Assembly: GCA_963675945.1 (NCBI GenBank)
Contig: OY780932.1
Location: forward strand, 1,640,503-1,704,502
Length of the DNA stretch: 64,000 bases
Source: Planctomycetota bacterium
GTDB taxonomy: Bacteria > Planctomycetota > SZUA-567
Reading direction: 5' to 3'
The number at the start of each line of letters is the position of its first letter. The first letter of the stretch is position 1. Both the position numbers and the translations under genes were made by a program. Positions 8,831-53,952 of the stretch are shown here, piece after piece. The notes under the pieces were generated by a model. That model did no database searches. It worked only from the letters and a program-made list of their open reading frames with translations, and was not told where the DNA came from.

Positions 8831-10297
8831 ATGATAACTGGGGAGCTCAGGAATAAGGTAGATGCGATTTGGGATGTGTTTTGGGCTGGGGGGATTGCTA
8901 ATCCGATGACGGTTATTGAGCAGTTTACTTATCTACTTTTTATCAAGGGGCTTGATGATAGGCAGAATGAGCTGGATAGTAATGACTCGTTGATAGGGAC
9001 TGTGAGTGAGAAGATATTTCCAGATGATAAGCAGGAGCTTCGGTGGAGTACATTTAAGCATTTGCCGGCGGAGAAGATGTTTGAGTTGTTTGTTGATCCG
9101 AAGGATGGCGTGTTTGCGTTTATCAAGAATTTGCATGCGGATAAGGATTCGGCATTTTCTAAGTATATGGGGGATGCGATATTTGCGATACCGAAGGCGG
9201 GAATGCTGGAGAAGATTGTTACTTCGATTGATAAATTGGAGATCAAGGGGAAGGATGCGAAGGGGGACTTGTATGAGTATCTGCTGTCGAAGATAGCGAC
9301 GTCGGGGCAGAATGGGCAGTTTCGGACACCGAGGCATATTATCAAGATGATGGTGGAGCTGATGAAGCCGGTGCCGACGGATACGATAATTGATCCGGCT
9401 GCGGGGACGTCGGGGTTTCTGGTGGCTGCTGGGGAGTATTTGCAGGAGCATCATGATGAGATATTCAAGAAGCAGGAGTTAAGGGAGCATTATAATAATG
9501 AAATGTTCTTTGGGTTTGATACTGATACGACGATGCTGCGTATTGGGGCGATGAATATGATGCTACATGGGGTGGAGAATCCGAATATTGAGTATCGGGA
9601 TTCGTTGTCGGGTGATAATCATGAGCGGGAGAGGTGTTCGTTGATATTGGCGAATCCGCCGTTTAAAGGGTCGCTGAATTATGAGGATGTGTCGGCGGAT
9701 ATACTCAAAGTGACGAAGACGAAGAAGACTGAGTTATTGTTTGTGGCTCTTATGATCAAGATGCTCAAGAAGGGCGGGAGGTGTGCGTGTATTGTGCCGG
9801 ATGGGGTGCTCTTTGGGAGTAGCGGGGCGCATAAGATGCTGCGGAAGGAGATTGTGGAGAAGCATAATCTGCGGGCGATTATTTCTATGCCGAGTGGCGT
9901 GTTCAAGCCGTATGCGGGAGTTAGTACGGCGGTGATAATATTTGATAAGACTGGGATTGGGGGAACATCACAGATCTGGTTTTATGATATGGAGAGTGAC
10001 GGGTATAGTCTGGATGATAAGCGGACGGCGCTCAAGAGTTCTGATATACCGGATATTATCGAGCGGTTCGGGAGGCTGGAGAAGGAGAAGAAGCGGAAGC
10101 GGACGGAGCAGTCGTTCATGGTGCCGGTGAGTGAGGTGGTGAAGAATGAGTATGACTTGTCGATCAACCGGTATAAAGAGATAGTGTATGAAGAGGTGGA
10201 ATATGATGAGCCGGCGGTGATACTGGAAAGAGTGGCGGAGATGGAGAAGGATATTGGTAAGGGGATTAAGGATTTGCAGAAGATGCTGAGCAAGTAA
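8831..10297 (+). CDS. hsdM: Type I restriction-modification system N6-adenine DNA methyltransferase subunit HsdM
   Basis: HsdM N-terminal domain followed by the catalytic LANPPF motif and AdoMet motif DPAAGTSGFL; 488 aa. Confidence 0.9.
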   Translation: MITGELRNKVDAIWDVFWAGGIANPMTVIEQFTYLLFIKGLDDRQNELDSNDSLIGTVSEKIFPDDKQELRWSTFKHLPAEKMFELFVDPKDGVFAFIKNLHADKDSAFSKYMGDAIFAIPKAGMLEKIVTSIDKLEIKGKDAKGDLYEYLLSKIATSGQNGQFRTPRHIIKMMVELMKPVPTDTIIDPAAGTSGFLVAAGEYLQEHHDEIFKKQELREHYNNEMFFGFDTDTTMLRIGAMNMMLHGVENPNIEYRDSLSGDNHERERCSLILANPPFKGSLNYEDVSADILKVTKTKKTELLFVALMIKMLKKGGRCACIVPDGVLFGSSGAHKMLRKEIVEKHNLRAIISMPSGVFKPYAGVSTAVIIFDKTGIGGTSQIWFYDMESDGYSLDDKRTALKSSDIPDIIERFGRLEKEKKRKRTEQSFMVPVSEVVKNEYDLSINRYKEIVYEEVEYDEPAVILERVAEMEKDIGKGIKDLQKMLSK

Positions 10298-10313
10298 GGT
10301 AAGGGTATATTAT

Positions 10314-10739
10314 ATGAGTACTGAGATTGACTATGGAAAATTTAAGAAGGCATTGAAGTTGCTTGAGGAGCAGAATAACCGGCTTAATTCTGAGGTTGGG
10401 AGTATGGAAGAATGGGTAATTGATGCTGTTAAGGAGTCGACTATACAGAGATTTGAGACATGTTGGGACTGCCTGTGGAAGGTATTGAAGAGGTATTTGG
10501 AGATAGAGATAGGGCTTGCTGAAGTTCCGAATGGTCCGAATCCGATTTTGAGATTGGCGAATGAGAATAGTGTCTTGACTAGTTCTATTGAGGATTGGTT
10601 GATGTATGCGAGGGTAAGAGTTGGTACGTCACATGATTATAGCGGAGTGAAGGCTACTGATGCGTTGAAGTGTATGAGTAGTTTTATTGATGATGCGGTT
10701 AAGCTTTATGAGAAGATGAGTGGAGAGAGCTGGAGATAA
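10314..10739 (+). CDS. nucleotidyltransferase substrate-binding (HEPN, HI0074-like) toxin-antitoxin component
   Basis: 141 aa helical protein of the HI0074/NTase_sub_bind type. Its stop overlaps the start of the downstream minimal nucleotidyltransferase (ATAATG). Confidence 0.6.
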   Translation: MSTEIDYGKFKKALKLLEEQNNRLNSEVGSMEEWVIDAVKESTIQRFETCWDCLWKVLKRYLEIEIGLAEVPNGPNPILRLANENSVLTSSIEDWLMYARVRVGTSHDYSGVKATDALKCMSSFIDDAVKLYEKMSGESWR

Positions 10740-11056
10740 TGATTGATCATATACGTGATATAGATTTATCTGATGAGGAGTATCGTGAGGTGATGGCGTT
10801 GGTTGAGCGTTATATTCCTTGGGTTGAGGTATGGGTTTATGGTTCACGTGTTAAGCATACGGCAAAACCATATTCTGATTTGGATATGGTAGCTTTTGCT
10901 AGTGGTGAGAGTGTTTGTGCGGTTGCGGATTTGCGAGAGGCTTTTGAGGATAGTTATTTGCCATTCAGGGTTGATTTATTTATTTGGAAAGAGATACCGG
11001 AAGAGTTTAAGGAAGTTATTCGGGATGAGCATGTAGTTTTACAGGAAAAGAAATAG
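10739..11056 (+). CDS. minimal nucleotidyltransferase (MNT, HI0073/MntA-like) toxin-antitoxin component
   Basis: GSRVKHTAKPYSDLDM is the pol-beta-type NTase motif G[SG]x9-13Dx[DE]; 105 aa, translationally coupled to the upstream HEPN gene. Confidence 0.7.
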   Translation: MIDHIRDIDLSDEEYREVMALVERYIPWVEVWVYGSRVKHTAKPYSDLDMVAFASGESVCAVADLREAFEDSYLPFRVDLFIWKEIPEEFKEVIRDEHVVLQEKK

Positions 11057-11440
11057 GATTTGCAGAAGTAACGTTAATATAGCGTGTGATTTTAACCGAA
11101 GCGGTGAATACAGAATTGAGCGATCTGGCAAGCCAAGTAAATCGCTTTAGAAATTTACATAGTAGACTGAAGCGATACACAGGTCGCCAAGCAGGTGACA
11201 TTTTTCATCTGGGATGTATGTGAATTCCGAACTGGTGAGGAATGAGTCGTGTGCTTACTTTTGTCTGCTGGTCGGACGAAAAGTCAGTCGAAGTCTTCTG
11301 AGAATAGCGAATCCGACGCAGGAGGCGGGAGGATAGATGGAGCAACTTGTTGCGACACCCGAAGGGCAAGGACAGGGATGTCCGCAGTCAAGAAGGCTGA
11401 GAGTTTAGTCGTAGTTAAACTTGAAAATAGGGTTGAGTAA

Positions 11441-12598
11441 ATGAGTGAAAAGAAAAATAAAAAGCCGATTAATGAACATAAGTGGTATTTACTAATTATT
11501 ATTGTTGCTTTGGGGCTATTTTATATATATCCACTTTATACTCTGCTTGGAATTGGGTTTTTCTCACTAATAATTCATTTGCGATATGACCTTGATGACA
11601 TAGGAAAAATTGGTAGGAAGCATCCTGTATGGACAACAATTATATTATTTACATTTGGTATTGAGTTATATTTGTGGATTTATAAATATGGGTTATTATG
11701 GAAAGAACAGTATGCTCAACAGCCTTGGATAGAGTTGCTCGCAAATATTAAAAATGGTAAAGTTGTTGTAGGAAATAGTACCTTAGACTTTACTGAGTTG
11801 TTAAAAAAAGGCGTTGTTATGATGATTAGTACACCAGCATCAATTATTCCTATCATTCTTGCTCCGTATTTTTGGGTATTGTGGATTTGGAGGCATAATG
11901 ATAAAGAGTATGATAAAAAGAGAAATGAAGAGCTTGATGAGCAGGGTCGATTTAATCGGATAATTGATATGGTTGGGTCTACTGAGGTGAATTTACGATC
12001 AGGTGGAATGATGTTACTTGATGGCTTTCTAACTAGGTATGAAGATAATGATTTGGAATATAAATATTATTGTGGTGCTGCAATTTCTGTATTAGCAAAT
12101 AATTATTTCCCTGTTAATGATGGTATGTTTAATAGCAGAGTGATGTGTCATAAATCTTTTGCTGTTTGTTTAATATTACAAAATAAGCATTATAAAATAT
12201 GTGGAAAGCTAGCAGGTACTCCGTTATGTTTTGATTTTAATGTAAATGATTATATCGTCAGGTATTATGAGCTTTGTATTGATAATAGTCAGGAATTTGT
12301 TTTTGTTCGTTGTGTTGTAAGATTAGATATATTATTGTGTTTATTACGTAATAGTGAATATGCAAAAATATTTTCAAAAATGAAATTTAAAAAATCAATT
12401 TTTGAGATGACGGATTATTATTTAAAACATAGAATTCCCGATGATTTGATAGTTTTTTTTAGTGATAAAAATAAAGTTTATGAATGTTTATTGATGTGTC
12501 CTGAAGATAATTTTGCGAATAAGGAAGCATTTAAAATTATTAATAATTCAAATGATAATTTCTATATTGGTTTTAAATATGATAAAGAAGGAAATTAA
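11441..12598 (+). CDS. hypothetical multi-TM membrane protein, very AT-rich, translationally coupled to hsdS
   Basis: 385 aa with 3-4 N-terminal TM helices and a Cys-rich soluble C-terminal part; about 30% GC against about 45% in hsdM. Its stop overlaps the hsdS start (TAATG at 12596..12600). Confidence 0.55.
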   Translation: MSEKKNKKPINEHKWYLLIIIVALGLFYIYPLYTLLGIGFFSLIIHLRYDLDDIGKIGRKHPVWTTIILFTFGIELYLWIYKYGLLWKEQYAQQPWIELLANIKNGKVVVGNSTLDFTELLKKGVVMMISTPASIIPIILAPYFWVLWIWRHNDKEYDKKRNEELDEQGRFNRIIDMVGSTEVNLRSGGMMLLDGFLTRYEDNDLEYKYYCGAAISVLANNYFPVNDGMFNSRVMCHKSFAVCLILQNKHYKICGKLAGTPLCFDFNVNDYIVRYYELCIDNSQEFVFVRCVVRLDILLCLLRNSEYAKIFSKMKFKKSIFEMTDYYLKHRIPDDLIVFFSDKNKVYECLLMCPEDNFANKEAFKIINNSNDNFYIGFKYDKEGN

Positions 12599-13731
12599 TG
12601 AATAAATGGGAACTTGTTAAGCTTGGAGATGTAGTAACATTTCTTGATAATATGAGAGTGCCTGTAAAAGCTAGTGATAGAGTTGAAGGGGAATATCCAT
12701 ATTATGGGGCAAATGGACAGCAAGGAACAATTAATGATTATATTTTTGATGAATCATTAGTTTTGTTGGCTGAAGATGGTGGTAATTTTAATGATCCTAC
12801 TCGCCCTATTGCATACATTGCAAAGGGGAAGTATTGGGTTAATAACCATGCTCATGTTTTGCGCCCTTTAGAAATGATTACATTGAAATATTTATATTGG
12901 GTTTTAGCATTTTGTAATGTTATGCCTTATATTAAAGGGGCGACACGTCCAAAACTTACTAAAACTGACGCAAGTAGAATCAAAATCCCCCTCCCACCTC
13001 TGGCAACACAGAAACGCATAGTCAAGATACTGGACAAGGGGCAGGAGTTGATTGATAAGCGGAAGCGGCAGCTTGAGGAGATGGATGAACTGGTTAAGAG
13101 TTTGTTTTATGATATGTTTGGTGATCCTGTGACTAATCCTATGGGATGGGAAAAGGGAATAATTAGAGATTTAGCCGTGAAAACTCAGTATGGTACTAGT
13201 AAAAAGGCTCATGAAACAGATGGTGAGTTTCCTGTATTAAGAATGAATAACATAACATATAAGGGTACTTGGGACTTTAGCAGTCTTAAATATGTTGATT
13301 TTGATGAGAATGAAAAAGCAAAGTATTTAGTGTATAAAGGTGAGTTGCTTTTCAATAGAACTAATAGTAAGGAGCTAGTTGGTAAAACTGCTGTTTATAA
13401 AAATACTGAACCAATGGCATATGCTGGTTATCTTGTTAAGTTGATAGTGAATGAAAAAGCAAATTCTGAGTATATCTCTGCATATTTGAATTCAAATCAT
13501 GGTAAAGCAGTTTTGCTTAATATGGCAAAAAGTATTGTCGGTATGGCTAATATTAACGCTGAAGAATTAAAGAAGATTAAAATTTTGATCCCTCCTGTTT
13601 CGCTGCAAAATGAATTTGCAACCAGAGTACAAGCAATAGAAACAGAAAAAGAACGAATGCAGAAGTCACTCAAAGAGCTTGAGGATAATTTTGCAGCGTT
13701 GATGCAGAGGGTGTTTAAAGGGGAGTTGTAG
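12598..13731 (+). CDS. hsdS: Type I restriction-modification specificity subunit HsdS
   Basis: Two target-recognition domains, a central conserved LPPLATQKRIVKILD helix, a C-terminal coiled-coil repeat, 377 aa. Confidence 0.85.
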   Translation: MNKWELVKLGDVVTFLDNMRVPVKASDRVEGEYPYYGANGQQGTINDYIFDESLVLLAEDGGNFNDPTRPIAYIAKGKYWVNNHAHVLRPLEMITLKYLYWVLAFCNVMPYIKGATRPKLTKTDASRIKIPLPPLATQKRIVKILDKGQELIDKRKRQLEEMDELVKSLFYDMFGDPVTNPMGWEKGIIRDLAVKTQYGTSKKAHETDGEFPVLRMNNITYKGTWDFSSLKYVDFDENEKAKYLVYKGELLFNRTNSKELVGKTAVYKNTEPMAYAGYLVKLIVNEKANSEYISAYLNSNHGKAVLLNMAKSIVGMANINAEELKKIKILIPPVSLQNEFATRVQAIETEKERMQKSLKELEDNFAALMQRVFKGEL

Positions 13732-13871
13732 TTAGCTGAATACGCTGGCACGAAGCTTATATCTTGATGAATTTGGTAATTTGAATGCGGTGCTGGATTG
13801 TCATGAGGATTTTAATAGTAATATGAATTTTGTGGGTGAGTAGGTATATTTGAATAATAAGGACAATATTT

Positions 13872-14183
13872 ATGATTACCATTAAGATTAATAATGAATA
13901 CCGAAGGCTGAAAGATACGAGTAAAGAGTGGATTGTAAATATGTTTAGGAATATTCAAGCAGCGGGTGCTAACCCGTGGTATATTATCACTGTTGAAGAT
14001 CAGAATGTATATTCAGCATTTTGTTCGAATAATATTCCAACTTCACAAGAGTTGTGTCCGAAGTATACCCATACACTAGAAGAAAAAGAATTATCAGTTC
14101 TTTGGAAAACCCTTTGTGATGGGAGTAGTAACGTAAATGAAGTTTTGGCTTTTCTTGATAAAATTCCAAGTAAATATTTATAG
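13872..14183 (+). CDS. hypothetical small protein (103 aa) translationally coupled to downstream TIR-domain gene
   Basis: AT-rich ORF. Its stop at 14181..14183 is followed by GGAGGTG, the RBS of the TIR gene, 3 nt later. Confidence 0.45.
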   Translation: MITIKINNEYRRLKDTSKEWIVNMFRNIQAAGANPWYIITVEDQNVYSAFCSNNIPTSQELCPKYTHTLEEKELSVLWKTLCDGSSNVNEVLAFLDKIPSKYL

Positions 14184-14186
14184 GAG

Positions 14187-15146
14187 GTGATGATGGCAGG
14201 AGTATCGGTTTTCTTCTCATATTCGCATGCAGATGAAGAAATGAGAGATCAATTAGAGAAACACCTTACAATGTTAAAACGTAATGGTAATATATCAACA
14301 TTTCATGATAGAGAAATATTAGCTGGTGCTGAATTCGGTAATGAAATAGATCAAAATTTAATTGAAGCAGGAATAATTTTGTTATTAGTTAGTCCTGATT
14401 TTTTAGCGTCAGAATATTGTTATTCGATAGAGATGCAAACAGCTTTGAAAATGCATAAAGAAAATAAAGCAGTGGTTATCCCTGTAATTTTAGATCATTG
14501 CGATTGGCGAAGTGCTCCTTTTAGCTCTTTGATGGCTGTACCAAATGATGCAAAGCCAATTACTGAGTATGCAAATCAAAATAAGGCATTTGACGAAATT
14601 ACAACAGAGATAAGAAAAGTAGTTCAAAGTATTGCTGATACGGCTGATATCGCATGTTCAACAGCTAATTTTGAAGTTGAAAATTGTGAACCAAAAGTTG
14701 TTTGTAATGATAGATCAGCTAATTTGCATGTAAAGAAAGAATTTACTGAGCTTGATTTTAATGATTTTTTGAATAACTCATATGATTATATTGCAAAATA
14801 TATGCAGAACACACTTGAAGAATTTGAAAAAAGAAATGTTGGATTTCAAACAAGATTTAATTCTAATGATTCAAAAATTGAAATTTTAATATTTAATAAT
14901 GGAGTTAAAGTTGCTTATTGTAGAATTATGAAAGGAAGAGATGTTTCTTATATGATTGATTCGTTAGTATACTCTGAATCTGAGATGGGTAATTCTTTTA
15001 ATGATTCATTAAATATTGAAAATGATGGAACTTCTTTATTTTGGAAGCCAAGTTTTAATGTTGGGTATAGCCAAAAAGAAGAATTATTGTCGATGAAAGG
15101 GGCTGCTGAGTTTTTTTGGGATAAAGTTATTAGTAGGTTTCAGTAA
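14187..15146 (+). CDS. TIR-domain protein (N-terminal TIR_2-like domain plus about 170-aa C-terminal domain of unknown function)
   Basis: VFFSYSHADEEMRDQLEKHL ... IILLLVSPDFLASEYCYSIEMQTAL ... VIPVILD matches the bacterial TIR fold (SxSH, conserved Glu, hydrophobic beta-strand motifs). Strong RBS GGAGGTG. Confidence 0.7.
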   Translation: MMMAGVSVFFSYSHADEEMRDQLEKHLTMLKRNGNISTFHDREILAGAEFGNEIDQNLIEAGIILLLVSPDFLASEYCYSIEMQTALKMHKENKAVVIPVILDHCDWRSAPFSSLMAVPNDAKPITEYANQNKAFDEITTEIRKVVQSIADTADIACSTANFEVENCEPKVVCNDRSANLHVKKEFTELDFNDFLNNSYDYIAKYMQNTLEEFEKRNVGFQTRFNSNDSKIEILIFNNGVKVAYCRIMKGRDVSYMIDSLVYSESEMGNSFNDSLNIENDGTSLFWKPSFNVGYSQKEELLSMKGAAEFFWDKVISRFQ

Positions 15147-15297
15147 TTAGAATTAATGAAGTTTTCAACAAACTGCCCAGTGCGGGCTGCGCACCGAGGG
15201 ATGCAAGGGGCGAGGAGCCCCTGCGGAAGGGGTTTGGGGAAGGAACGTCCCCATTAGGAGTGACTTTGAACTATAAGGTTGGGTAAAAGGGATAGAG

Positions 15298-18200
15298 ATG
15301 AGTAACTTTGGGTTTTTGGATAAGCATAGTATGTTCAGGACGATTACGCCGCTGTGTAAAGAGGCGGAGAGTGCGCTCGGGGTGTCTAATGCTATCGCGG
15401 CGCTGTCGGCTAGGAGAGCGCTGGAGAGTGCGGTGAAATGGATGTACTCACATGACAGTACGCTTGAAGTGCCGTATCAGGATAACCTTTCCGCACTGAT
15501 TCATGATTATAAATTCAAAGACCTGATAGATGAAAGACTGTTTCCGAGAATCAAGTTCATTATAACACTGGGGAATAAAGCAGCGCATCAGTCTATGCCG
15601 ATGCGACGGGATGAGAGTGTGAAAGCGCTGGAGAATCTGTTTCATTTTATGAGGTGGATTACGTACGCTTATGGCGGTGAGAACTGTGCGGTGAAGTTTG
15701 AGGTTGGGAAACTGGCGGGTAGTGCTGAATATGAGCGGAAGACGAAGGCGATACAGGATGAGTTCAGAGAGAAGAAGGTTGAGTGGGAAGCGGAGAAGAA
15801 GAAGCTTGAAGAGCTGCTGCTGAGTAAGGAAGAGCGGGAAGAGGTAACGCAGAAGCGAGAAGAGAATGAGCAGAAGGCTGATTTTGCGTGTGAAGATATA
15901 TCTGAGTTCAAGACGAGAAAGGTTTATATCGATCTGGCGCTGGAGATGGCTGGCTGGGAGATTGGGGCTGACTGTAGGGAAGAGGTAGAAGTAAGCGGGA
16001 TGAAGAATGCTTCGGGAGTGGGGTTTGTTGATTATGTGCTGTATGCTGCTGACGGTAAGCCGCTCGCGGTAGTCGAGGCGAAGCGGGCGGCTAAAGATCC
16101 GAAGATTGGTAAGGTGCAGGCGAAGCTGTATGCGGATTGTCTGGAAGAGGAGTATGGTGTTCGACCGCTTATCTATTATACCAATGGATTTGAATACTGG
16201 TTGTGGGAGGATGCGTTCTATCCGGAGAGAAGGGTGTCGGGGATTGCGACGCGGGACAGCCTTGACTGGTACAGGCAGAGAGTAAAGACACGGAAGGATA
16301 TTTCTGCTGTTAAAGTGAATGATGAGATATCAAACAGACCTTATCAGAAAGCTGCGATTCAGGCGGTGTGTGAGAATCTGAGTAAGGCACAGAGGAAGTC
16401 TTTACTGGTGATGGCTACGGGGGCGGGCAAGACGCGTACGGCTATATCGATCGTTGATGTGCTGACTAAGAATAACTGGATTAAGAATGTCTTATTCCTT
16501 GCTGACAGGCGTGAGCTGGTTAAACAGGCTAAGCAGAACTTTTCTAAATTACTGCCGCATCATACAATCTGTAATCTGCTGGAGAAGAAGACGGAGGATA
16601 ATTCACTCAACAGTAGGATTATATTCTCTACTTATCCGACGATAATGAATGCGATTGATGTGACAAAGAAGGATGATGGTTCGACGCTCTTTACGGTAGG
16701 GCATTTTGACTTAATTATTATTGATGAATCACACCGTTCAATTTATAAAAAATATCAGGATATCTTTGCGTACTTTGACTCGTATCTACTGGGGCTTACT
16801 GCTACGCCGAAGAGCGATATCGGGAAGAATACTTATGGGTTCTATGATATTGAGAATGGAGTGCCGACGCATGCGTATACGCTGGATGAGGCGATACGTG
16901 ATGAGTGGCTGGTGCCGTATCGGGTGGTGAATACTACGCTGAAGTTTCTCACTTCTGGGGTTAAGTATGATGAGTTGTCGGATGAGGAGCAGGAGGAGTG
17001 GGAGGATAAGATTGGTGAGGAGATTGACAGTATCAGCAGTAACGAGGTGAACAGGATACTCTTCAATGATAATACTGTGGATACGGTTATTCAGGCGTTG
17101 ATGAATGATGGGATTAAGATTGAGGGCGGGGATAAGATCGGGAAGACGATTATCTTTGCTGCCAATACGAAGCATGCGGAGTATATTCTTGGGAGATTCA
17201 ATAAATTGTATCCGCATTACGCGGGGAAATTTGCTGCGACTATTTATAACGGGGTGAATTATGTTGATTCGCTGATCGATGATTTTAAGGAGGAGGATAA
17301 ATTTCCGCAGATTGCTGTGTCGGTGGATATGCTTGATACGGGGATTGATGTGCCGTCGATTGTCAATCTGGTCTTCTTTAAGAAGGTGCGCTCTAAAGCG
17401 AAGTTTCATCAGATGATTGGGCGTGGGACTAGGCTTTGTGAGGATCTCTTCGGTATTGGGGAGGATAAAGATGGATTTCGTATTTTTGATTATTGTTCGA
17501 ATTTTGAATTCTTCAAGGAAAATACGCAGGGGATTGAGACGAGACCGCAGAGGTCGCTCTCTGAGTGTCTGTTTATTATAAAGACTGAGATTGCGAAATT
17601 GCTTGAACATGCAACCTATCAGGAGAAGGAGTATATTAATCACCGTAAAGAGTTGGTGACTGGGTTGGCGAAAGAGGTGTATATGCTGGATGACTCTAGT
17701 CTTATCAATAGACTTCATTTAAAGTATATTCATGAATATCGTGATGTGAATGCATGGCAGAGTATATCTGACAAGATGCTGGCTGATATTAAAGAGCATA
17801 TTGCGCAGATTGTGATTCCGTCTACAGAGGATGAGTTGAAGAAACGGTTTGATTACTTGATGTATGCGATTGAGCATGCGTGTCTTGACCGGAAACAGCC
17901 TGCGCCGAAGAATAGGCGGAAGTTACAAACAACGGCTGAGAAGCTTGAGGAGAAGGGTAATTTGCCACAGGTGCAGCGTAACCTTGAGATTATAGAGTAT
18001 GTACAGTCTGAGGAGTATTGGGAGAATGCGTCTGTGTTTGATCATGAGCGGGTGCGTATTGCGCTGCGTGAGCTTGTGGTTCTCCTTGAGAGAGAAAACG
18101 CTGCAACGTACTTCACCAACTTTATGGATGAAGTGCTTGAGGTGCAGGAGATTGAGGGAGTGTACACTACGGATGAGTTTGTGAGCTACCGCAGGAAGGT

Positions 18201-18642
18201 TGAGGCTTATCTCAAAGAGCATCAGGATGACTTTGTTGTTTATAAGTTGCGTCACAATGAAACGCTCAACTTGAAGGATGTTGAGCATCTGGAGGATCTT
18301 CTGTGGAATGAGCTTGGGAGTGAGAATGATTACAAAACAGAGTATGGTGAGCAGCCCTTGCTTGAATTAGCTGCCAAACTTGTCGGCTTAGACCGTAATA
18401 CAGCGCAGGGTTTGTTCTCTGAATTTTTGTCTGATAATTCTCTCAATAGCAATCAGATTAATTTTGTCTCTCAGATTGTTGATTATATTGAGGATAATGG
18501 TGTGATTGATAAAAAGGTATTGCATGATCATCCGTTCAATCAGCAGGGGAGTATTGCTGAGCTGTTTGAGAATAAATTGCATGTTGTGACTAGTATAGCG
18601 AAAATTCTTGATGCTGTTAATGAGCGGGTTAGAGTGGGGTAA
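15298..18642 (+). CDS. hsdR: Type I restriction-modification endonuclease/helicase subunit HsdR
   Basis: 1114 aa. HsdR N-terminal region, PD-(D/E)xK nuclease motif FVDYVLY...VVEAKR, SF2 helicase Walker A MATGAGKTRTA and DExH box IIIDESHR. Confidence 0.9.
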   Translation: MSNFGFLDKHSMFRTITPLCKEAESALGVSNAIAALSARRALESAVKWMYSHDSTLEVPYQDNLSALIHDYKFKDLIDERLFPRIKFIITLGNKAAHQSMPMRRDESVKALENLFHFMRWITYAYGGENCAVKFEVGKLAGSAEYERKTKAIQDEFREKKVEWEAEKKKLEELLLSKEEREEVTQKREENEQKADFACEDISEFKTRKVYIDLALEMAGWEIGADCREEVEVSGMKNASGVGFVDYVLYAADGKPLAVVEAKRAAKDPKIGKVQAKLYADCLEEEYGVRPLIYYTNGFEYWLWEDAFYPERRVSGIATRDSLDWYRQRVKTRKDISAVKVNDEISNRPYQKAAIQAVCENLSKAQRKSLLVMATGAGKTRTAISIVDVLTKNNWIKNVLFLADRRELVKQAKQNFSKLLPHHTICNLLEKKTEDNSLNSRIIFSTYPTIMNAIDVTKKDDGSTLFTVGHFDLIIIDESHRSIYKKYQDIFAYFDSYLLGLTATPKSDIGKNTYGFYDIENGVPTHAYTLDEAIRDEWLVPYRVVNTTLKFLTSGVKYDELSDEEQEEWEDKIGEEIDSISSNEVNRILFNDNTVDTVIQALMNDGIKIEGGDKIGKTIIFAANTKHAEYILGRFNKLYPHYAGKFAATIYNGVNYVDSLIDDFKEEDKFPQIAVSVDMLDTGIDVPSIVNLVFFKKVRSKAKFHQMIGRGTRLCEDLFGIGEDKDGFRIFDYCSNFEFFKENTQGIETRPQRSLSECLFIIKTEIAKLLEHATYQEKEYINHRKELVTGLAKEVYMLDDSSLINRLHLKYIHEYRDVNAWQSISDKMLADIKEHIAQIVIPSTEDELKKRFDYLMYAIEHACLDRKQPAPKNRRKLQTTAEKLEEKGNLPQVQRNLEIIEYVQSEEYWENASVFDHERVRIALRELVVLLERENAATYFTNFMDEVLEVQEIEGVYTTDEFVSYRRKVEAYLKEHQDDFVVYKLRHNETLNLKDVEHLEDLLWNELGSENDYKTEYGEQPLLELAAKLVGLDRNTAQGLFSEFLSDNSLNSNQINFVSQIVDYIEDNGVIDKKVLHDHPFNQQGSIAELFENKLHVVTSIAKILDAVNERVRVG

Positions 18643-32699: not shown

Positions 32700-32739
32700 T
32701 CTGCGGGCGGTGCTGCGGACAAGTAAGGGTTATAATTGA

Positions 32740-32776
32740 GTTGAGACCTGGGTTGGTACTGGGTCTCAACTTTTGT
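32740..32776 (+). terminator. rho-independent terminator after flotillin gene
   Basis: Stem gttgagacc / ggtctcaac with a 13-nt loop, followed by TTTTGT. Confidence 0.6.
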
Positions 32777-33005
32777 ATGTAGCTTGCCGTATGCGGCAGT
32801 GGACGAGCGTTAATATATTCTTCTGGGTGCACAAGGGGGGAGGCTTGAGGTTTATGCGGCGATAATTGAGGAGAAAATCTGATCCAGCTTGACAATTGCG
32901 GTTGTATGCCTATTATTTAGTTAGCTACAATATTGTATAAAATGGTTGGCTGAGCGGTTCCAAGTGTTGTTATAGCTACTGCCGCGAAGATTACTGGAGA
33001 TAAGA

Positions 33006-34277
33006 ATGAGCGATAGAACAGCAACCGAGGTTGAAGCGATCCTGGCGACAGACATTACTACCTTGCTTGCAGAATTTCCCAGCCTTGGCGGCGAGTTTAC
33101 GGCGAGGGGGCTGGGTGCATTCTGTACTGCGGAAGCAAAGGCGGGAATCGGACGCTTTCTTCATTTGGAGACGGTGTTGCGCCGACGTGAGATTGATGCG
33201 TTGGGTTTTGTTAATGAGTGTATTCTGCCTGTAATTCACGAGCAGGATGACGACCTGGGTGAGCTGCGGGATGTGCCGACCTCTGAAGTTATCAATTACG
33301 GGGCTGGGGCGGGGAGCGTGTTGGCGCTACTGCCCTGCGGTTTGAAGCGTTCATACCATGCCGGAATAAAGGAGTTTGCCAGTGCACAGCCGGAGGATTA
33401 TGCGCAACTTGATTTTCTTATTCAAGGAAATGTCAATCATGAACTCTCGTACTACCCGCACTTGTCGCGGGTTCAGTCCGAGGGGGAGATACCGGAGATG
33501 CTGTTGGTCTCGGATTTTAACTGTCTCTTTCACCATGATTTTATAAAGCGTTTTGTAAATCCCGGCCTCTTTGCGGCTCCGGCGGGTTATCCAGGTGCTG
33601 ACGCCAGTAGAGCCTTTCAGGAATGCGGTTATTTTGATCCGCAGAATAAGTACATGATGTTGACTGCCAATCCGCTGATTATGGTTGTTGATCGAGCAAG
33701 GTTGGGCGGCAAAGCCGCCCCGCGTTCCTGGCGGGAGCTGATAGAAGGGGATTATCGCAATGAGGTCAGCATTCGGGGGGATGGCAGTTTTTTCTGCAAC
33801 GGCGTACTCCTCCCGCTGTATAAGAAGTTCGGTTTTGACGGATTACGTAAGCTTGCGGCGCAGGTTAAGAACGGCCTGCACCCTTCCCAGATGGTCAAGG
33901 AGCTTTCGCAGAAGAGTCCGCAGCGTTCGGCAATCTATATCATACCGTATTTCTTTGCGCAGACTATCTCGGGTAATAATGAGTGTGAGTTGATCTGGCC
34001 GGAAGAAGGGGCGATTATTAGTCCGGTATTTATGGTGGCGAAGGAACGGAGTCTGTCGGTTATGGAGCCGCTGATCAAGTATTTCTGCAGCGAGCGTTTC
34101 GGGCGCATTCAAGATAATGCTTACTTTCCGCCGGTCTCGGAGATTGCCTCCAGCTTTGATCCGGCCGATAGGAATTTCTATTGGCTGGGCTGGGATTTTT
34201 TGCGCGGTGAGGACAGTGGCCGGATAAAACAGGAGATAGAGCAGATGTTTGTGCCTGCGGTGGAGTCTACCCGGTAG
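33006..34277 (+). CDS. cytoplasmic protein with C-terminal ABC-type periplasmic-binding-protein-like (SBP_bac_1/8-like) domain and unknown N-terminal domain
   Basis: No signal peptide. The segment PRSWRELIEGDYRNEVSIRGDGS...YIIPYFFA resembles Fe/thiamine/polyamine-type SBP folds. 423 aa. Confidence 0.45.
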   Translation: MSDRTATEVEAILATDITTLLAEFPSLGGEFTARGLGAFCTAEAKAGIGRFLHLETVLRRREIDALGFVNECILPVIHEQDDDLGELRDVPTSEVINYGAGAGSVLALLPCGLKRSYHAGIKEFASAQPEDYAQLDFLIQGNVNHELSYYPHLSRVQSEGEIPEMLLVSDFNCLFHHDFIKRFVNPGLFAAPAGYPGADASRAFQECGYFDPQNKYMMLTANPLIMVVDRARLGGKAAPRSWRELIEGDYRNEVSIRGDGSFFCNGVLLPLYKKFGFDGLRKLAAQVKNGLHPSQMVKELSQKSPQRSAIYIIPYFFAQTISGNNECELIWPEEGAIISPVFMVAKERSLSVMEPLIKYFCSERFGRIQDNAYFPPVSEIASSFDPADRNFYWLGWDFLRGEDSGRIKQEIEQMFVPAVESTR

Positions 34278-34332
34278 TCTCCGCTCTGGTTATGATGGTA
34301 TTTTGTGTTTTGATTGGATTGAGATTTTAGCT

Positions 34333-35040
34333 ATGAGACTTATTACCATATCCGGCCCTCCTTCAAGTGGCAAGACTACCCTGCTGCTGCGAATCGTTGA
34401 GTCATTACGGCAGAATAGACTGACGGCAGGGGTGGTGAAGTTTGATTGCCTGGCTAACTCCGACAAGCAGGTATTTGCGGCTAACGGGGTGCCGGTAAAG
34501 GTAGGACTCTCGGGCGGCCTCTGCCCGGATCATTTTTATATCAGCAATGTGGAGCAGGCACACGACTGGGGGCAACGGAGAGGGTTTGACTACCTCTTCT
34601 TTGAGAGCGCAGGACTCTGTAACCGTTGCAGTCCGCATCTGAAGGATATTCTGGCAGTCTGTGTGATCGATAACCTCTCGGGCCTCAATACTCCCTATAA
34701 GATTGGGCCGATGCTCAGGGGGGCGGATGTTGTGGTTATAACCAAGGGTGATATTGTCTCGCAGGCTGAGCGCGAGGTCTTCGCTTTCCGGGTGCGTCAG
34801 GTTAATCGCCGAGCCAGGATTATCCCGGTAAATGCGCTGACCGGGCAAGGGGTACTGCTTCTGGTAAACCTCTGTATGGGGGCGGAGCCGCGGTCTGAGC
34901 TTACCGACTGTCAGTTGCGCTTTACGATGCCGGCGGCTCTGTGCAGTTATTGTCTGGGGGAGACCTCGGTCGGTAAGGACAAACAGATCGGTATGGTAAA
35001 GTATATTGATTTTTCAGATGGGGAGGCGGTAGATGGTTGA
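34333..35040 (+). CDS. G3E-family P-loop GTPase (HypB/UreG-like metallochaperone)
   Basis: Walker A GPPSSGKTTLL, SGGLCPDH in the position of HypB GKGCHLDA, switch/Walker B FFESAGL, an NKxD-like VITKGD, and a C-terminal CSYC. The start at the internal ATG 34333 (MRLITISG) is preferred over 34249. Confidence 0.6.
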   Translation: MRLITISGPPSSGKTTLLLRIVESLRQNRLTAGVVKFDCLANSDKQVFAANGVPVKVGLSGGLCPDHFYISNVEQAHDWGQRRGFDYLFFESAGLCNRCSPHLKDILAVCVIDNLSGLNTPYKIGPMLRGADVVVITKGDIVSQAEREVFAFRVRQVNRRARIIPVNALTGQGVLLLVNLCMGAEPRSELTDCQLRFTMPAALCSYCLGETSVGKDKQIGMVKYIDFSDGEAVDG

Positions 35041-36040
35041 GCCGCAGGTGAAGGTCAAGGATTTTCTGGGGATGACCCTGGAAGAGATCCGCCGCGAGGA
35101 GACCGATCTCTGGCAGATGCTCCAGGCAATGCTGGGGGAATGGCCGTTGTTGACCAAAAGTTTGGCGGTGAATATTGCGGCACTGGATGAGGGACAGCTC
35201 AAGGACAGGGGGCTCAGCAGAGAGGTTATCCGTGGTGCAGTCAACGATTTTGCGGAGCATGTGGCTAATTCCAGGGTGGATTCAGCGGTGGAGATGATTA
35301 CCATTATCGGGGGGCAGGCTAAGGATGGCACGCCTGAAGGTGTTAATTTGGATATCTGCCGCGGGAAGATAAGTTGCCTGGTGGGGGCGACCGGAGCTGG
35401 TAAGAGTCAATTACTCAACGATCTTGAATGTCTGGCGCAGGGAGATACCCCGAGTAAGCGACGGATCTTACTGGACGGGCAGAGCCCGGATGATGAGCTG
35501 CGGTTTTCTATCGAGCGTAAAATTGTCGCTCAGTTGACTCAGAATATGAATTTTGTCATGGATATTCCGGTGGGAGAGTTTATCCTACTCCATGCTCGAA
35601 GTCGTCTCAAGGCCGAGCCGGAGCGACTTACCCGGGAGGTTTTGCAGACCGCAAATAACTTGGCTGGAGAGAAGTTCTCCCCGGATACCCCGCTAACAGG
35701 ACTCAGCGGCGGGCAGTCGCGGGCGTTGATGATCGCCGATACCGCCCTTATCTGTGATTCGCCGGTGGTGCTGATTGATGAGATCGAGAATGCTGGAGTA
35801 GATCGGCGTCGGGCGCTTGATCTCTTGTTAAATCAGCAGAAGATCGTGATTCTGGCGACCCATGATCCGGTACTCGCCTTGCTCGCTGATCAGCGCATAA
35901 CTATCCGGGACGGGGCGATTGTGGCGGTGTTGGAGACGACCTACGAGGAGAAAAAACTTCTTGAGTCCCTGCTGGTAGCGGATGAACGGATAAGCAAAAT
36001 TAGAACTAGCTTGCGTAACGGAGAGCGCGTCGGTGGGTAG
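35033..36040 (+). CDS. ABC-type ATPase with about 110-aa N-terminal extension (no cognate permease nearby)
   Basis: Walker A GATGAGKS, signature LSGGQ, Walker B VVLIDE, H-loop ATHD. Its start overlaps the stop of the GTPase gene. Confidence 0.7.
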   Translation: MVEPQVKVKDFLGMTLEEIRREETDLWQMLQAMLGEWPLLTKSLAVNIAALDEGQLKDRGLSREVIRGAVNDFAEHVANSRVDSAVEMITIIGGQAKDGTPEGVNLDICRGKISCLVGATGAGKSQLLNDLECLAQGDTPSKRRILLDGQSPDDELRFSIERKIVAQLTQNMNFVMDIPVGEFILLHARSRLKAEPERLTREVLQTANNLAGEKFSPDTPLTGLSGGQSRALMIADTALICDSPVVLIDEIENAGVDRRRALDLLLNQQKIVILATHDPVLALLADQRITIRDGAIVAVLETTYEEKKLLESLLVADERISKIRTSLRNGERVGG

Positions 36041-39952: not shown

Positions 39953-40930
39953 TTAGAGGCTGGTGCGCGGCGCACCGGCTGTAAACAGACGGTAGAGCAG
40001 GTAGCAGACAGCGATTACGATGACTGCACCTATAACCCCTGCTATTCCGGTAGAGATAGCCGGGTTGGTAATACTGGTGAGGCTATAGTCAGGCAGTGGG
40101 GAACTGGTCCAGAGCTCCTTGATGCGGTCGATAAAGCCCATGTCCTCGGCAACTCGTTCCAGACCATCCGGTGAAGATGAGGCGAAGGGACTGAGGAAGG
40201 CTGCAAGCAGGAAGGAGAGACCGACACCGATCAGGGCTATCGGCCAGATCCGTGACGGACGGTGGCTGGAAGGAGCGAGCTTGGAGAAGCCTGTCCAGTC
40301 TGGAAGGAGATCCGGGCGGGAATAGGCAACGGCTCCGACGATGGCGCAGGAGATCAGACCCTCGCCGATACCGATGAGCGCGTGGGTACCGACCATTGCT
40401 GGCAGCCCTGCCGCAAGCGGAACGCTACCGGAAAGCGCCAGCTCAATACTGCAGGCGATTGAGGCGAGAATTACCGAAGCCCAACTGGCAATACCGACGG
40501 CTCCGAGAAATCCGACACGGTTTTTTGGTAAGAAGAGCATTAGACCGCGGAGAACACCGTAGCCGACAAAGCCGCCGATTACACCCATATTGAAAAGATT
40601 GGCTCCCAGAGCAATTATACCTCCGTCAGCAAAGGCGAAGGCCTGAACCGCCAGCACGCTGAGCATGATCAGAAAAGCACGGCAGGGGCCGAAGAGTGCA
40701 GCCATGGCCAGGGCGCCGAGAAAGTGGCCGCTGGTGCCGGAAGCTACCGGGAAGTTGAGCATCTGGGCTGAGAAGACTACACCAGCAGCAGTAGCTGGGA
40801 GTAGGCTTGAGCCCTTGGCCTTGCTTTGACCCTGGCGAATCTTGGCAATACTCAGGCCAAGAGCGCCCAGCGAGACTGCCGCTGTAGTCATACTTACGGG
40901 AAGTGAACAGAAACCATCAGGAATATGCAT
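39953..40930 (-). CDS. cbiM: CbiM/NikM-family ECF-transporter substrate-capture (S) component fused to a C-terminal PDGLE domain
   Basis: N-terminal MHIPDGF metal-binding signature, multiple TM helices, and a C-terminal SPDGLERVAED...TM segment. 325 aa. Confidence 0.75.
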   Translation of the reverse strand: MHIPDGFCSLPVSMTTAAVSLGALGLSIAKIRQGQSKAKGSSLLPATAAGVVFSAQMLNFPVASGTSGHFLGALAMAALFGPCRAFLIMLSVLAVQAFAFADGGIIALGANLFNMGVIGGFVGYGVLRGLMLFLPKNRVGFLGAVGIASWASVILASIACSIELALSGSVPLAAGLPAMVGTHALIGIGEGLISCAIVGAVAYSRPDLLPDWTGFSKLAPSSHRPSRIWPIALIGVGLSFLLAAFLSPFASSSPDGLERVAEDMGFIDRIKELWTSSPLPDYSLTSITNPAISTGIAGVIGAVIVIAVCYLLYRLFTAGAPRTSL

Positions 40931-52347: not shown

Positions 52348-53952
52348 TTACTTTAATGCGTCGGCGATATCGGCGTCGGCGGTGGTGGTCGGAGCGATAT
52401 TAAAGGTATCTACGAGTACCTGCAGCGCTTCCTGAGTGATAAAGGCGGGCAGGGTTGGCCCGAGTTTGATATTCTTGACTCCGAGGAAGAGGAGGCTGAG
52501 GAGTATGGCCACAGCTTTCTGTTCGTACCAGCTCAGGATGATTGAGAGCGGGAGTTCGTTTACCCCGCAGCCGAAGGCCTGGGCGAGCATGAGGGCACAC
52601 TGGACGGCGGAGTAAGCATCGTTACACTGGCCGATATCGAGCAGTCGGGGCAAGTCGGCGACGCTGCCGAAATCAAGCTTGTTGAAGCGGTACTTGCCGC
52701 AGGCGAGGGTGAGGATGATCGAGTCCTGTGGAACCTTCTCAGCCAGCTCGGTATAGTAGTTTCTGCCGCTCTTGGCGCCGTCACAGCCGCCGATAAGGAA
52801 GAAGTGTTTTACCGCGCCGCTTTTGACCGCTGCGACCACGGCGGGAGCGGCATGCTCCAGGGCGTTGTGGCCGAAACCGATGAGGATCTTCTTCTCCGGG
52901 GCGGTCTCGCTGAAGCCGTCTGCAGCTAGCGCAGCTTCAATGACCGGAGTAAAGTCTTTTTCTGCACCGATGTGCGTGACGCCGTCGAAAGCGACTAGAC
53001 CGGTGGTGAAGATACGCGCGGTGTAGGTGGTAGGCTTCTGAATGCAGTTGGTGGTCATGAGGATGGCACCGGGGAATTCGGCGAATTCCTGCTGCTGATC
53101 CTGCCAGGCGCCGCCGTAATTTCCGGCAAGGTGTGGATATTTCTTGAGTTCGGGGTAGGCCAAGGCGGGTAGCATCTCGCCGTGCGTATAGATATCAATA
53201 CCTTTGCCCGCTGTCTGTTCGAGCAGATCCTTCAAATCCTTGAGGTCATGGCCGGAGACGAGTATGCACTTGCCGGCGCGGGGCGTGACTGCGACCTCAG
53301 TCGGCTCGGGATTGCCATACGCGGTAGTGTTGGCTTTATCCAGGAGTTCCATGGCTTGGAAGTTCAGCTCACCCGTAGCCAGTGCCTGCTCCAGCAGCTT
53401 TTCGACTGAGTCCGGTTCTTCGGCGAGAAAAGCGAGTATCGCGCGGAGTTTAGCGTATACCTCTTCAGCTTCGACCCCGAGTACGCGGGCATGATGGAGG
53501 TAGGCGGCGGCGCCCTTGAGGCCGTAGAAGACTACTTCCTGTAGACCAGCGACGGTGGCACCGTACTTTTTTTGCCTGGCAGTGATGGAGACACTCTCGG
53601 CAGTCTTCACGTTCTGGGTTATATCTGAACTGATAGGGATGTCGATCCCGGTGATAGCGGCAGCGGCAGTCGGCTTGAAGCTGGCGCGCAGATCGGCTCC
53701 GGCGAGGATGAGCTCCTGCATCCGGGATTCTGAGAAGTTCACATTGGTAACGGTGGTAAACAAGGCATCGACCAAGTAACGGCTTACCTCTGTATTATTT
53801 TGGGCAGAATTCTCTGCCAGCCAGGCGAGCCCCTTGGCTACTTCGTTCAGTAGATCCTGCAGCCCGGCGACTGACTCTGACTTTCCGCATACACCCTGCT
53901 TGCTCTGGCAGCCTTGGCAATTGACGGTCTGTTCGCACTGATAACAAAACAT
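52348..53952 (-). CDS. hcp: hydroxylamine reductase / hybrid-cluster protein
   Basis: Starts MFCYQCEQT, the N-terminal Cys cluster of Hcp; 534 aa. Confidence 0.9.
   Translation of the reverse strand: MFCYQCEQTVNCQGCQSKQGVCGKSESVAGLQDLLNEVAKGLAWLAENSAQNNTEVSRYLVDALFTTVTNVNFSESRMQELILAGADLRASFKPTAAAAITGIDIPISSDITQNVKTAESVSITARQKKYGATVAGLQEVVFYGLKGAAAYLHHARVLGVEAEEVYAKLRAILAFLAEEPDSVEKLLEQALATGELNFQAMELLDKANTTAYGNPEPTEVAVTPRAGKCILVSGHDLKDLKDLLEQTAGKGIDIYTHGEMLPALAYPELKKYPHLAGNYGGAWQDQQQEFAEFPGAILMTTNCIQKPTTYTARIFTTGLVAFDGVTHIGAEKDFTPVIEAALAADGFSETAPEKKILIGFGHNALEHAAPAVVAAVKSGAVKHFFLIGGCDGAKSGRNYYTELAEKVPQDSIILTLACGKYRFNKLDFGSVADLPRLLDIGQCNDAYSAVQCALMLAQAFGCGVNELPLSIILSWYEQKAVAILLSLLFLGVKNIKLGPTLPAFITQEALQVLVDTFNIAPTTTADADIADALK

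Follow-up and report, generated by a model that had tools for sequence, protein, structure and literature searches.

A stretch of 64,000 nucleotides from a Planctomycetota bacterium of the SZUA-567 lineage (assembly GCA_963675945.1, contig OY780932.1, positions 1,640,503 to 1,704,502; the whole stretch is called the window) contains, at positions 33006-36040 of the forward strand, three consecutive genes for a solute-binding protein (SBP), a GTPase of the G3E type and an ATP-binding cassette (ABC) ATPase. These genes, referred to here as the module, are co-transcribed or translationally coupled and are co-inherited across Archaea and at least seven bacterial phyla. Their products, all three of them cytoplasmic, are probably an NTPase-driven metallochaperone system with unprecedented partners and a new metal. 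Judged from the sequences, the chances are about even that the three proteins act as a cytoplasmic, ATP- and GTP-driven machine that hands on molybdenum (or tungsten) after import and feeds the iron-molybdenum cofactor (FeMo-co), possibly together with other molybdenum enzymes. An earlier note on this DNA had proposed a soluble ATP/GTP-driven machine for metal or cofactor insertion or maturation, and this is still the best reading. The nickel, cobalt or zinc that the note had considered is abandoned, since the genomic context suggests molybdenum (or tungsten) and the nitrogenase cofactor instead. A literature search found no published description of the trio, and source annotations name its proteins only generically, as an extracellular binding protein and an ABC transporter ATPase.

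Organization and distribution of the module

The module consists of gene 1 (33006..34277, forward strand, 423 aa, Pfam SBP_bac_6), gene 2 (34333..35040, forward strand, 235 aa, G3E GTPase, Pfam cobW/HypB/UreG, PF02492) and gene 3 (35033..36040, forward strand, 335 aa, ABC ATPase, Pfam ABC_tran). All three open reading frames (ORFs) lie where the earlier note had placed them, as seen from the ORF list and the translations, and the overlap that it reported between the GTPase and ATPase genes measures 8 nt. Comparison with homologues sets the start of gene 2 at the ATG at 34333 (MRLITISGPPSSGKT...) and not at the TTG at 34249 that opens the mechanical ORF.

A genome scan detected relatives of gene 1 in 248 species, and 20-kb stretches were retrieved for the best 80 loci. 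In a census of 87 loci, neighbours within 10 kb of the module were recorded; flanking ORFs were clustered, and the clusters were annotated by Pfam, NCBIfam and PDB searches. This gene-neighbourhood analysis, which the earlier note had recommended as a check of co-occurrence, recovered the three genes together and in the order SBP-G3E-ABC in 81 of the 87 loci, the rest being explained by contig ends or frameshifts. Since this order is shared by loci from many phyla, the grouping is far beyond chance. Of 84 loci, 55 have overlapping SBP and G3E genes, and in 42 of 81 the G3E gene overlaps the ABC gene; the junctions are mostly 4-nt overlaps. The hosts are anaerobes or facultative anaerobes and belong to Planctomycetota, Bacteroidota, Desulfobacterota, Vibrio, Kiritimatiellota, Lentisphaerota, Fibrobacterota, Spirochaetota and Methanosarcinales; look-ups from the G3E and ABC side added Acidobacteriota, Deferribacterota, Chrysiogenota and Negativicutes. 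The family of binding proteins is small, with 392 clusters at 50% identity among 1.84 billion. A Planctomycetota metagenome-assembled genome (MAG), L007, shares 97% identity with the window, and gene 3 is 100% identical to a protein encoded on a 3.91-Mb contig (P0244). In L007, the call for the G3E gene covers only 184 aa (11328-11882) and is followed by a gap of 146 nt before the ABC gene, which is probably an assembly frameshift and not gene decay.

A binding protein that stays in the cytoplasm

Gene 1 matches the Pfam family SBP_bac_6 over residues 161-400 (E 3e-59; 200.9 bits against a cut-off of 24.6). It has no NCBIfam model, and an exact-sequence look-up of the window protein returned no match. 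The earlier note had described it as an SBP without a signal peptide, and this holds for the entire family: among 81 members, neither a signal peptide nor a lipobox was found, and the maximal 15-residue Kyte-Doolittle hydropathy of the N-terminal 50 aa is 0.95 in the median and 1.65 at most, far under the 1.9-2.5 of periplasmic ModA and Peripla_BP_2 proteins used as controls. The gene 1 protein is therefore cytoplasmic across the family. Together with the lack of a dedicated permease, this agrees with the proposal that the module is not a transporter.

An AlphaFold model of gene 1, with a predicted local distance difference test (pLDDT) of 84, divides the protein into a helical domain (residues 1-77; 33006..33236), a disordered linker (residues 78-103) and a class-II binding-protein fold (residues 104-423; 33315..34277) that is also recognized by Pfam and Foldseek. 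The N-terminal addition described earlier is thus real, but it is not one domain of about 130 aa; it combines the 77-residue helical domain with the linker. At the N-terminus of most gene 1 homologues, precomputed Pfam annotation reports DUF1858, for which the window protein is too divergent to be detected. The family profile of the N-domain matches the DUF1858 structure 2k53 (E 8e-7) and, at lower significance, ScdA (E 0.04) and 2fi0 (E 0.05). Because this domain is conserved and folded, the start of gene 1 is not mis-called.

The invariant residues of gene 1 include P110-C111-G112, G141-N142-x-N144-x-E146-x-S148-Y149-Y150, R257-G258, F262-x-C264, H292-P293, P314-x-F316-F317, G335-A336, S339-P340 and W393-x-G395-W396. 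According to the alignment and the AlphaFold model, they map to the ends of strands and the N-termini of helices in both lobes, and they would correspond to the cleft sites at which cluster-D binding proteins hold their ligands. Foldseek aligned the protein with P5PA, PhnS-like proteins, PotD, AfuA and FbpA at 10-16% identity (probability 1.0 for many SBP_bac_6 members; target-normalised template modelling score of about 0.65). Pfam and NCBIfam searches gave no match to SBP_bac_11 or TIGR01256. In a hidden Markov model alignment to the FbpA structure 1y4t, the positions of the Fe3+-ligand tyrosines are taken by F263/C264 and Y315/F316, and an FbpA-like iron site was rejected on the grounds that these tyrosines are not conserved.

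Divergent relatives of gene 1 also occur outside the standard arrangement. One 534-aa protein of the representative library (P0412) joins a class-I S-adenosylmethionine (SAM) methyltransferase domain to a divergent member of the SBP family. A second cytoplasmic paralogue of about 396 aa, likewise without a signal peptide, is encoded between a TonB receptor and a periplasmic binding protein in the loci L034 (5916-7106) and L089 (7228-8427) and in some 10 further loci of Bacteroidota. The PCG, GNVNHELSYY and FFC motifs are missing from it, but those with His and WxGW are retained; in Paludibacter no other SBP accompanies the G3E and ABC genes.

The G3E GTPase

Gene 2 passes the cut-off of Pfam PF02492 (E 1e-14; 54.7 bits against 20.7) and falls under those of the NCBIfam models for individual families, namely HypB (TIGR00073, 51.7 against 121.2 bits), UreG (TIGR00101, 34 against 204.2) and MobB (TIGR00176, 23.6 against 76.2). 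The possibility raised earlier that the GTPase is a MobB is not borne out, as the match to that model is confined to the P-loop (residues 4-38); a match to NF041053 is likewise partial (residues 1-97). The HypB N-terminal CxxCGC motif is absent from gene 2, and so are the GCxCC motif and the C-terminal CobW_C domain of COG0523/CobW proteins. With scores under the cut-offs and motifs missing, assignments to MobB, HypB, UreG and CobW were all rejected.

All the G3E motifs quoted in the earlier note (GPPSSGKTTLL, SGGLCPDH, FFESAGL, VITKGD and CSYC) are present in gene 2. They correspond to the P-loop GPPSSGKT, a switch II of the form E91-SAGL-C96-xR-C99-xP-H102, the guanine motif TK138xD140, a C64-P-D-H67 motif that aligns with the Cys-Pro-His metal site of UreG (structures 5xkt and 4hi0) and a family-specific C-terminal tail of about 60 aa with C204-SY-C207. 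In 80 sequences, six cysteines (C39, C64, C96, C99, C204 and C207) and two histidines (H67 and H102) are invariant, and the Planctomycetota protein shares 51-66% identity with those of other phyla, including archaea. The Pfam match, the invariant motifs and the alignment to UreG structures bear out the assignment to the G3E metallochaperone type, and the PF02492 fold shared with UreG and HypB, with its aligned metal motif, makes a GTP-gated logic of metal release likely.

The ABC ATPase and the shared N-terminal domain

Gene 3 matches Pfam ABC_tran over residues 103-250 (E 2.5e-15), reaches the cut-off of no NCBIfam model and finds its nearest solved nucleotide-binding domains (NBDs) among the MacB, BceA, LolD and MJ0796 types and ModC, all of them remote (E 1e-17 to 1e-13). 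The motifs GATGAGKS, LSGGQ and VVLIDE reported for it belong to a full catalytic set, which is invariant in 76 sequences: Walker A (G118xTGxGKS), Q167, LSGGQ (224-228), Walker B with the catalytic glutamate (L247-IDE250) and the H-loop H277. The NBD is encoded at 35318..36040 and preceded by a helical extension at 35033..35317, which is real, as the note had stated, although it is closer to 95 aa than to 110.

In the AlphaFold2 model, the extension forms helices at residues 16-82 (pLDDT of about 85), so that the structure predictions called for by the note yield helical N-terminal domains in both gene 1 and gene 3. The two domains are also related at the profile level: hhalign aligned them over 69-71 columns with a probability of 92.6-93% and E-values of 4-5e-7. 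Neither contains a conserved cysteine.

Molybdenum and nitrogenase genes in the neighbourhood

Genes for molybdenum transport or regulation (modABC, ModE and Mop), a MolB-like importer or nif-type genes (nifENB, nifV, nifX and TIGR01616) lie within 10 kb of the module in 40 of the 87 loci, and ModD is found in one further locus. The link extends over at least nine independent lineages for molybdenum and seven for nif. For a single-copy locus in a 4-Mb genome, the chance expectation of such a neighbour is, by our own estimate, well below 1%. Among the neighbours, modA belongs to TIGR01256 (187 bits; cut-off 62.5), and ModE and Mop pass their cut-offs as well. In Desulfuromonadales, the order is modE-modA-modB-modC-(Mop)-module. 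The arrangement in Pontiella is modA-modA-module-modB-modC, that in Holophaga is module-ModD-TrmO (ModD: TIGR01334, 219.6 bits; cut-off 178.85), and in Paludibacter a Mop gene lies within a FecCD-type operon with the G3E and ABC genes. Nitrogenase genes adjoin the module in the orders nifE-nifN-nifB-module-TIGR01616 in Desulfobulbus, nifH-I1-I2-D-K-EN-B...module-nifV in a groundwater MAG (L052) and nifH-D-K-X-fdx-X-module-nifB-modB-modC-nifV in Syntrophotalea carbinolica DSM 2380, while in a member of the Marinilabiliaceae (L037) the module stands beside nifB-nifV-modABC. In addition, six loci from four lineages have a gene for TIGR01616, a "nitrogenase-associated protein", next to the module.

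A further recurrent context is a FecCD-type importer, present in about 20 Bacteroidota loci and in Victivallales, Desulfatiglandales and Desulfuromonas. Here, the gene order is lipoprotein, TonB receptor, (paralogous cytoplasmic SBP), Peripla_BP_2, FecCD permease, 258-aa ATPase, module and a regulator resembling the ModE N-terminal winged helix-turn-helix domain (E 6e-20). Among solved proteins, this permease has its best homologue in MolB (HI1471) of a type II molybdate/tungstate importer (E 1e-73, compared with 8e-59 for FhuB). A cobalamin-importer context was rejected: seven importer-linked loci contained neither a cobalamin nor a molybdenum-cofactor riboswitch, a result that is uninformative for molybdenum. 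Overall, about 35% of the loci adjoin ABC importer genes, and in 47 of the 87 loci no permease is encoded within 10 kb. The earlier note had regarded routine encoding next to ABC permeases as evidence for an ordinary importer; such adjacency does occur, but the adjacent importers are complete, always with their own secreted binding protein, permease and ATPase. Since they are self-sufficient, the module appears to be functionally tied to import as an addition to it and not as a part of the importer.

Some loci show further features next to the module. In S. carbinolica (L087; CP000142, 2444479-2465165), modB and modC are present with no modA-type gene within 10 kb, and the cytoplasmic SBP of the module is the only gene for a binding-protein fold in that range. 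A TrmO/TsaA-like gene (TIGR00104, above cut-off) is inserted between the SBP and G3E genes in three loci (L010, L018 and L037) and adjacent to the module in five (L027, L030, L075, L088 and L089); we know of nothing that would connect the tRNA-methyltransferase fold of TrmO with the trafficking of metals. In Holophaga (L088, 6962-8737), the gene that directly precedes the module encodes a 591-aa radical-SAM protein whose C-terminal region resembles a periplasmic binding protein. In Methanosarcina acetivorans, the radical-SAM gene ma1204 belongs to the ModE regulon, and the ModE operator has been defined experimentally (PMC12327845). An exact copy of this operator (RTTATGT-N8-RCATAAY) is found in Methanosarcina sp. 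T3 (L079, 16410-16431); it lies 5 kb downstream of the module, ahead of a FecCD-type importer, and not upstream of the module itself.

A putative hand-off of molybdenum

We infer the ligand, the order of transfer, the opening of the SBP by the ATPase via the shared domains and the client from the combination of these features. After import, the oxyanion or a thio-derivative would be taken up by the binding-protein-like subunit in a cleft whose predicted lining consists of invariant Cys, His, Asn, Glu and Tyr residues at the ends of strands and the N-termini of helices. A dimer of the ABC ATPase might then dock on the SBP through the shared DUF1858-type domains, and its ATP-driven closure could pry the SBP open, which would perform directly the relay that is usually the task of a permease. 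The metal would next pass to the dimeric, Cys/His-rich G3E GTPase, and upon GTP hydrolysis the GTPase would give it to a client, i.e. NifEN/NifH for FeMo-co and perhaps the insertion of the molybdenum or tungsten cofactor (Moco or Wco) elsewhere. In this way, the module would fill the role that NifQ has in proteobacteria. In a more specific and tentative version, the module would be a hitherto unrecognised type of cytoplasmic machine, a transporter without a membrane, in which the ABC dimer works a cytosolic SBP via DUF1858-type docking and molybdenum or thiomolybdenum moves via the G3E protein to NifEN. This would be a NifQ-independent route of anaerobic diazotrophs, including methanogens, and would make the GTPase the first molybdenum-specific G3E chaperone; its specific claims are possible but doubtful.

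Several observations weigh against molybdenum as the cargo or against the proposed docking. No molybdenum or nif gene lies within 10 kb of the module in 47 of the 87 loci, among them the window itself, all Methanosarcinales but L079, Desulfurispirillum, Calditerrivibrio and Propionispora, and none of the remaining genes in the window is related to molybdenum or nif. The folds nearest to the binding domain of gene 1 belong to proteins that bind pyridoxal 5'-phosphate, phosphonate, polyamines, sugar phosphates or Fe3+; neither ModA nor WtpA appears among the top 50 Foldseek hits, and the fold search singled out no ligand class. The best NCBIfam match of the FecCD-type permease is BtuC, under the cut-off, and the importers of this type could carry Fe chelates or corrinoids instead. 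As to regulation, 12 Methanosarcinales loci lack the ModE operator of M. acetivorans (PMC12327845) upstream of the module, 14 loci contained no Moco riboswitch, and among the targets of M. acetivorans ModE are also transporters with an annotation as Fe ABC transporters. Finally, Pfam DUF1858 does not match the N-extension of gene 3, for which searches gave no significant hit (PDB profile, ScdA, E 1.2; Foldseek, top hit 2k5e, E 3.3).

Alternative explanations

The same soluble machine might serve another cargo related to nitrogenase, such as iron or an Fe-S fragment, vanadium, homocitrate or a precursor like NifB-co, and mod genes would then be neighbours through the clustering of mod with nif. 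The nearest sequence relatives of the binding domain are FbpA-type Fe3+ binders, its nearest fold relatives bind phosphorylated organic compounds, and the TonB receptors and FecCD importers of many loci are typical of iron chelates; the many cysteines of the GTPase would suit an Fe-S cluster, and the ModE-controlled transporters annotated for iron fit as well. Nevertheless, in Desulfuromonadales and Pontiella the module sits within modE-modABC or follows it directly while nif genes are absent within 10 kb, ModD (Holophaga) and Mop (Paludibacter) are immediate neighbours, and the iron-ligand tyrosines of FbpA are replaced in gene 1, all of which renders a different cargo rather unlikely. Alternatively, the module could be a device of molybdenum homeostasis, i.e. 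a cytoplasmic buffer, store or sensor that sequesters molybdate or tungstate or feeds back on the importers. Its proximity to importers, ModE and Mop molbindins and a fold that suits tight, reversible binding would be expected of such a device, which is still improbable: a store or sensor has no obvious need of two different NTPases, G3E GTPases have a known role in metal insertion, and the placement of the module between nifX and nifB, or nifB and nifV, points to cofactor assembly.

It is quite improbable that gene 2 is a general G3E metallochaperone for nickel, cobalt or zinc, or that the module repairs iron centres under redox or nitric oxide (NO) stress by analogy with the DUF1858/ScdA-N domain of RIC proteins. 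Across about 90 loci, no urease, hydrogenase (hyp), cobalamin or hcp/ric gene is a recurrent neighbour of the module, although the closest relatives of the GTPase are the nickel chaperones UreG and HypB, whose scores are far under the cut-offs and, for HypB, whose CxxCGC motif is absent. The weak ScdA match of the N-domain profile (E 0.04) and a YgbA_NO gene after the module in Calditerrivibrio could be read as signs of iron-centre repair; the N-domains, however, have no conserved cysteine. The CbiM gene 4 kb from the module in the window, which could be taken as support, is not a conserved neighbour. An ordinary ABC importer with a permease encoded elsewhere and a mis-called SBP start would agree with the Pfam and source annotations of genes 1 and 3 and is highly improbable. 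Signal peptides and lipoboxes are missing throughout the family, the N-terminal domain is folded as well as conserved, every adjacent permease is accompanied by a secreted SBP and an ATPase of its own, and the G3E GTPase gene sits between the SBP and ABC genes in every locus; with a cytoplasmic SBP and self-sufficient importers next to it, the importer reading was rejected.

The molybdenum hand-off reading bears on a known gap. The route of molybdenum from importer to FeMo-co is understood in proteobacteria only, where it runs via NifQ. Methanogens and most anaerobic diazotrophs, which live in molybdenum-scarce or sulfidised habitats, have no NifQ, and the path of molybdenum to FeMo-co in sulfidic anaerobes is an open question (PMC11484787). 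Embedded in nif clusters, the module is a conserved candidate for this missing step, and its presence in tractable or cultured organisms (M. acetivorans, M. barkeri and S. carbinolica) makes the proposal directly testable. If true, a new metal would be added to the repertoire of G3E chaperones, a binding protein and an ABC ATPase would for the first time be found to act as a soluble pair, and three accessory genes would merit consideration when nitrogenase is transferred into new hosts. If the function differs, the module is still a widespread and strongly conserved three-protein system without an assigned function.

Promoter and surroundings in the window

In the window, the module is flanked by NfeD/flotillin genes upstream and a convergent histidine kinase gene downstream. 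A terminator-like hairpin at 32738..32772 on the forward strand (14-bp stem followed by a T-run; identified by a scan and direct reading) ends the NfeD/flotillin unit, which leaves the module transcriptionally isolated. It is followed at 32889..32916, on the same strand, by a sigma-70-type promoter for the trio, with TTGACA, a 16-nt spacer and TATTAT (11 of 12 matches). The promoter block CAGCTTGACAATT...TGCYTATYAT is kept in four Planctomycetota loci, whose proteins are merely about 71-73% identical. The upstream hairpin, the promoter and the convergent gene downstream together indicate that the module is an autonomous operon. Just 5' of the conserved promoter, upstream of the -35 box, two Planctomycetota relatives (L001 and L009, at about 9870-9885) carry a perfect palindrome, ATATTGCAATAT, of which the counterpart in the window (32875-32890) is degenerate. 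This palindrome may be an operator for a MarR-family regulator (c30), which is encoded upstream, along with a cupin protein (c31), in L001 and L009 and not in the window.

No ABC permease is encoded within about 10 kb of the module in the window, as the earlier note had observed. The other genes of the window include those for sugar-acid and TRAP functions, NfeD/flotillin, sensor kinases, CbiM-PDGLE, a type I restriction-modification (R-M) island, Hcp, CobT and ZIP. The CbiM gene (39953-40930, reverse strand) is fused to a PDGLE domain, and neither CbiQ nor CbiO is encoded nearby; it is truly an orphan, as the note had stated. A CbiM-like gene adjoins the module only in the window, its 97%-identical twin L007 and L057, and since it is not a conserved neighbour its proximity is probably irrelevant. 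The module ATPase was also rejected as a partner of the orphan CbiM, given this lack of conservation and matches to the CbiO/ECF models far under the cut-offs. A gene for a hybrid cluster protein (Prismane; 52348-53952, reverse strand) lies 16 kb from the module. DUF1858 domains elsewhere are known as Hcp-associated; an Hcp gene adjoins the module neither in the window nor in any relative examined. Finally, a low-GC island (8831-18642; GC content of 32-41% compared with about 50% elsewhere) contains the type I R-M genes (HsdM, HsdS and HsdR) and, among these, an unannotated 385-aa ORF and a gene for a TIR-domain protein (14187-15146), and could represent a defence island.

Comparison with known systems

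The GTPase of the module shares with UreG and HypB the PF02492 fold, the P-loop, the ESxG switch II, the [N/T]KxD motif and a Cys-Pro-(Asp)-His motif. It differs from them by scores far under the family cut-offs, by the additional invariant residues C39, C96, C99 and H102 and by the CSYC tail; the Cys-Pro-His site of UreG is present only as the variant C-P-D-H, and no ure genes are found beside it. The HypA and UreEFD partners are absent and replaced by an SBP-like protein and an ABC ATPase, and the context consists of molybdenum and nif genes instead of hydrogenase or urease genes.

The importers ModABC and MolBC-A (HI1470/71/72) resemble the module in combining a class-II binding-protein fold with an ABC NBD, and both importer types are physically linked to it. 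In contrast to them, the module has no transmembrane subunit, and its SBP is a cytoplasmic protein from SBP_bac_6 instead of SBP_bac_11 or Peripla_BP_2. Its ATPase has a putative DUF1858-like N-domain and no TOBE domain, with only remote identity to ModC and MJ0796.

An ABC ATPase that functions with no permease has a precedent in SufC, the soluble ATPase of SufBCD, which drives conformational change in metallocofactor assembly without a membrane domain. The ATPase of the module differs in that it best matches transporter-type NBDs and has a binding-protein fold as its partner instead of the beta-helix scaffolds SufB and SufD. The N-domain of gene 1 belongs to the DUF1858/ScdA-N family (2k53, 2fi0 and RIC/ScdA), to which that of the ATPase is related at the profile level. 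In known contexts, DUF1858 stands alone or before hemerythrin-like di-iron domains, whereas the domains of the module lack conserved cysteines and are fused to an SBP and an ABC ATPase.

The comparison with NifQ concerns the proposed role only. NifQ is a Cys-rich cytoplasmic protein that takes molybdenum after import and donates it at the NifEN/NifH stage, and the module, like nifQ, is located inside nif clusters in several lineages. No NifQ domain (PF04891) is matched in the trio, and the spacing of the cysteines differs from the Cx4Cx2Cx5C of NifQ. Furthermore, NifQ is a single protein without NTPase activity, while the module comprises three proteins, two of which are NTPases, and occurs in archaea as well.

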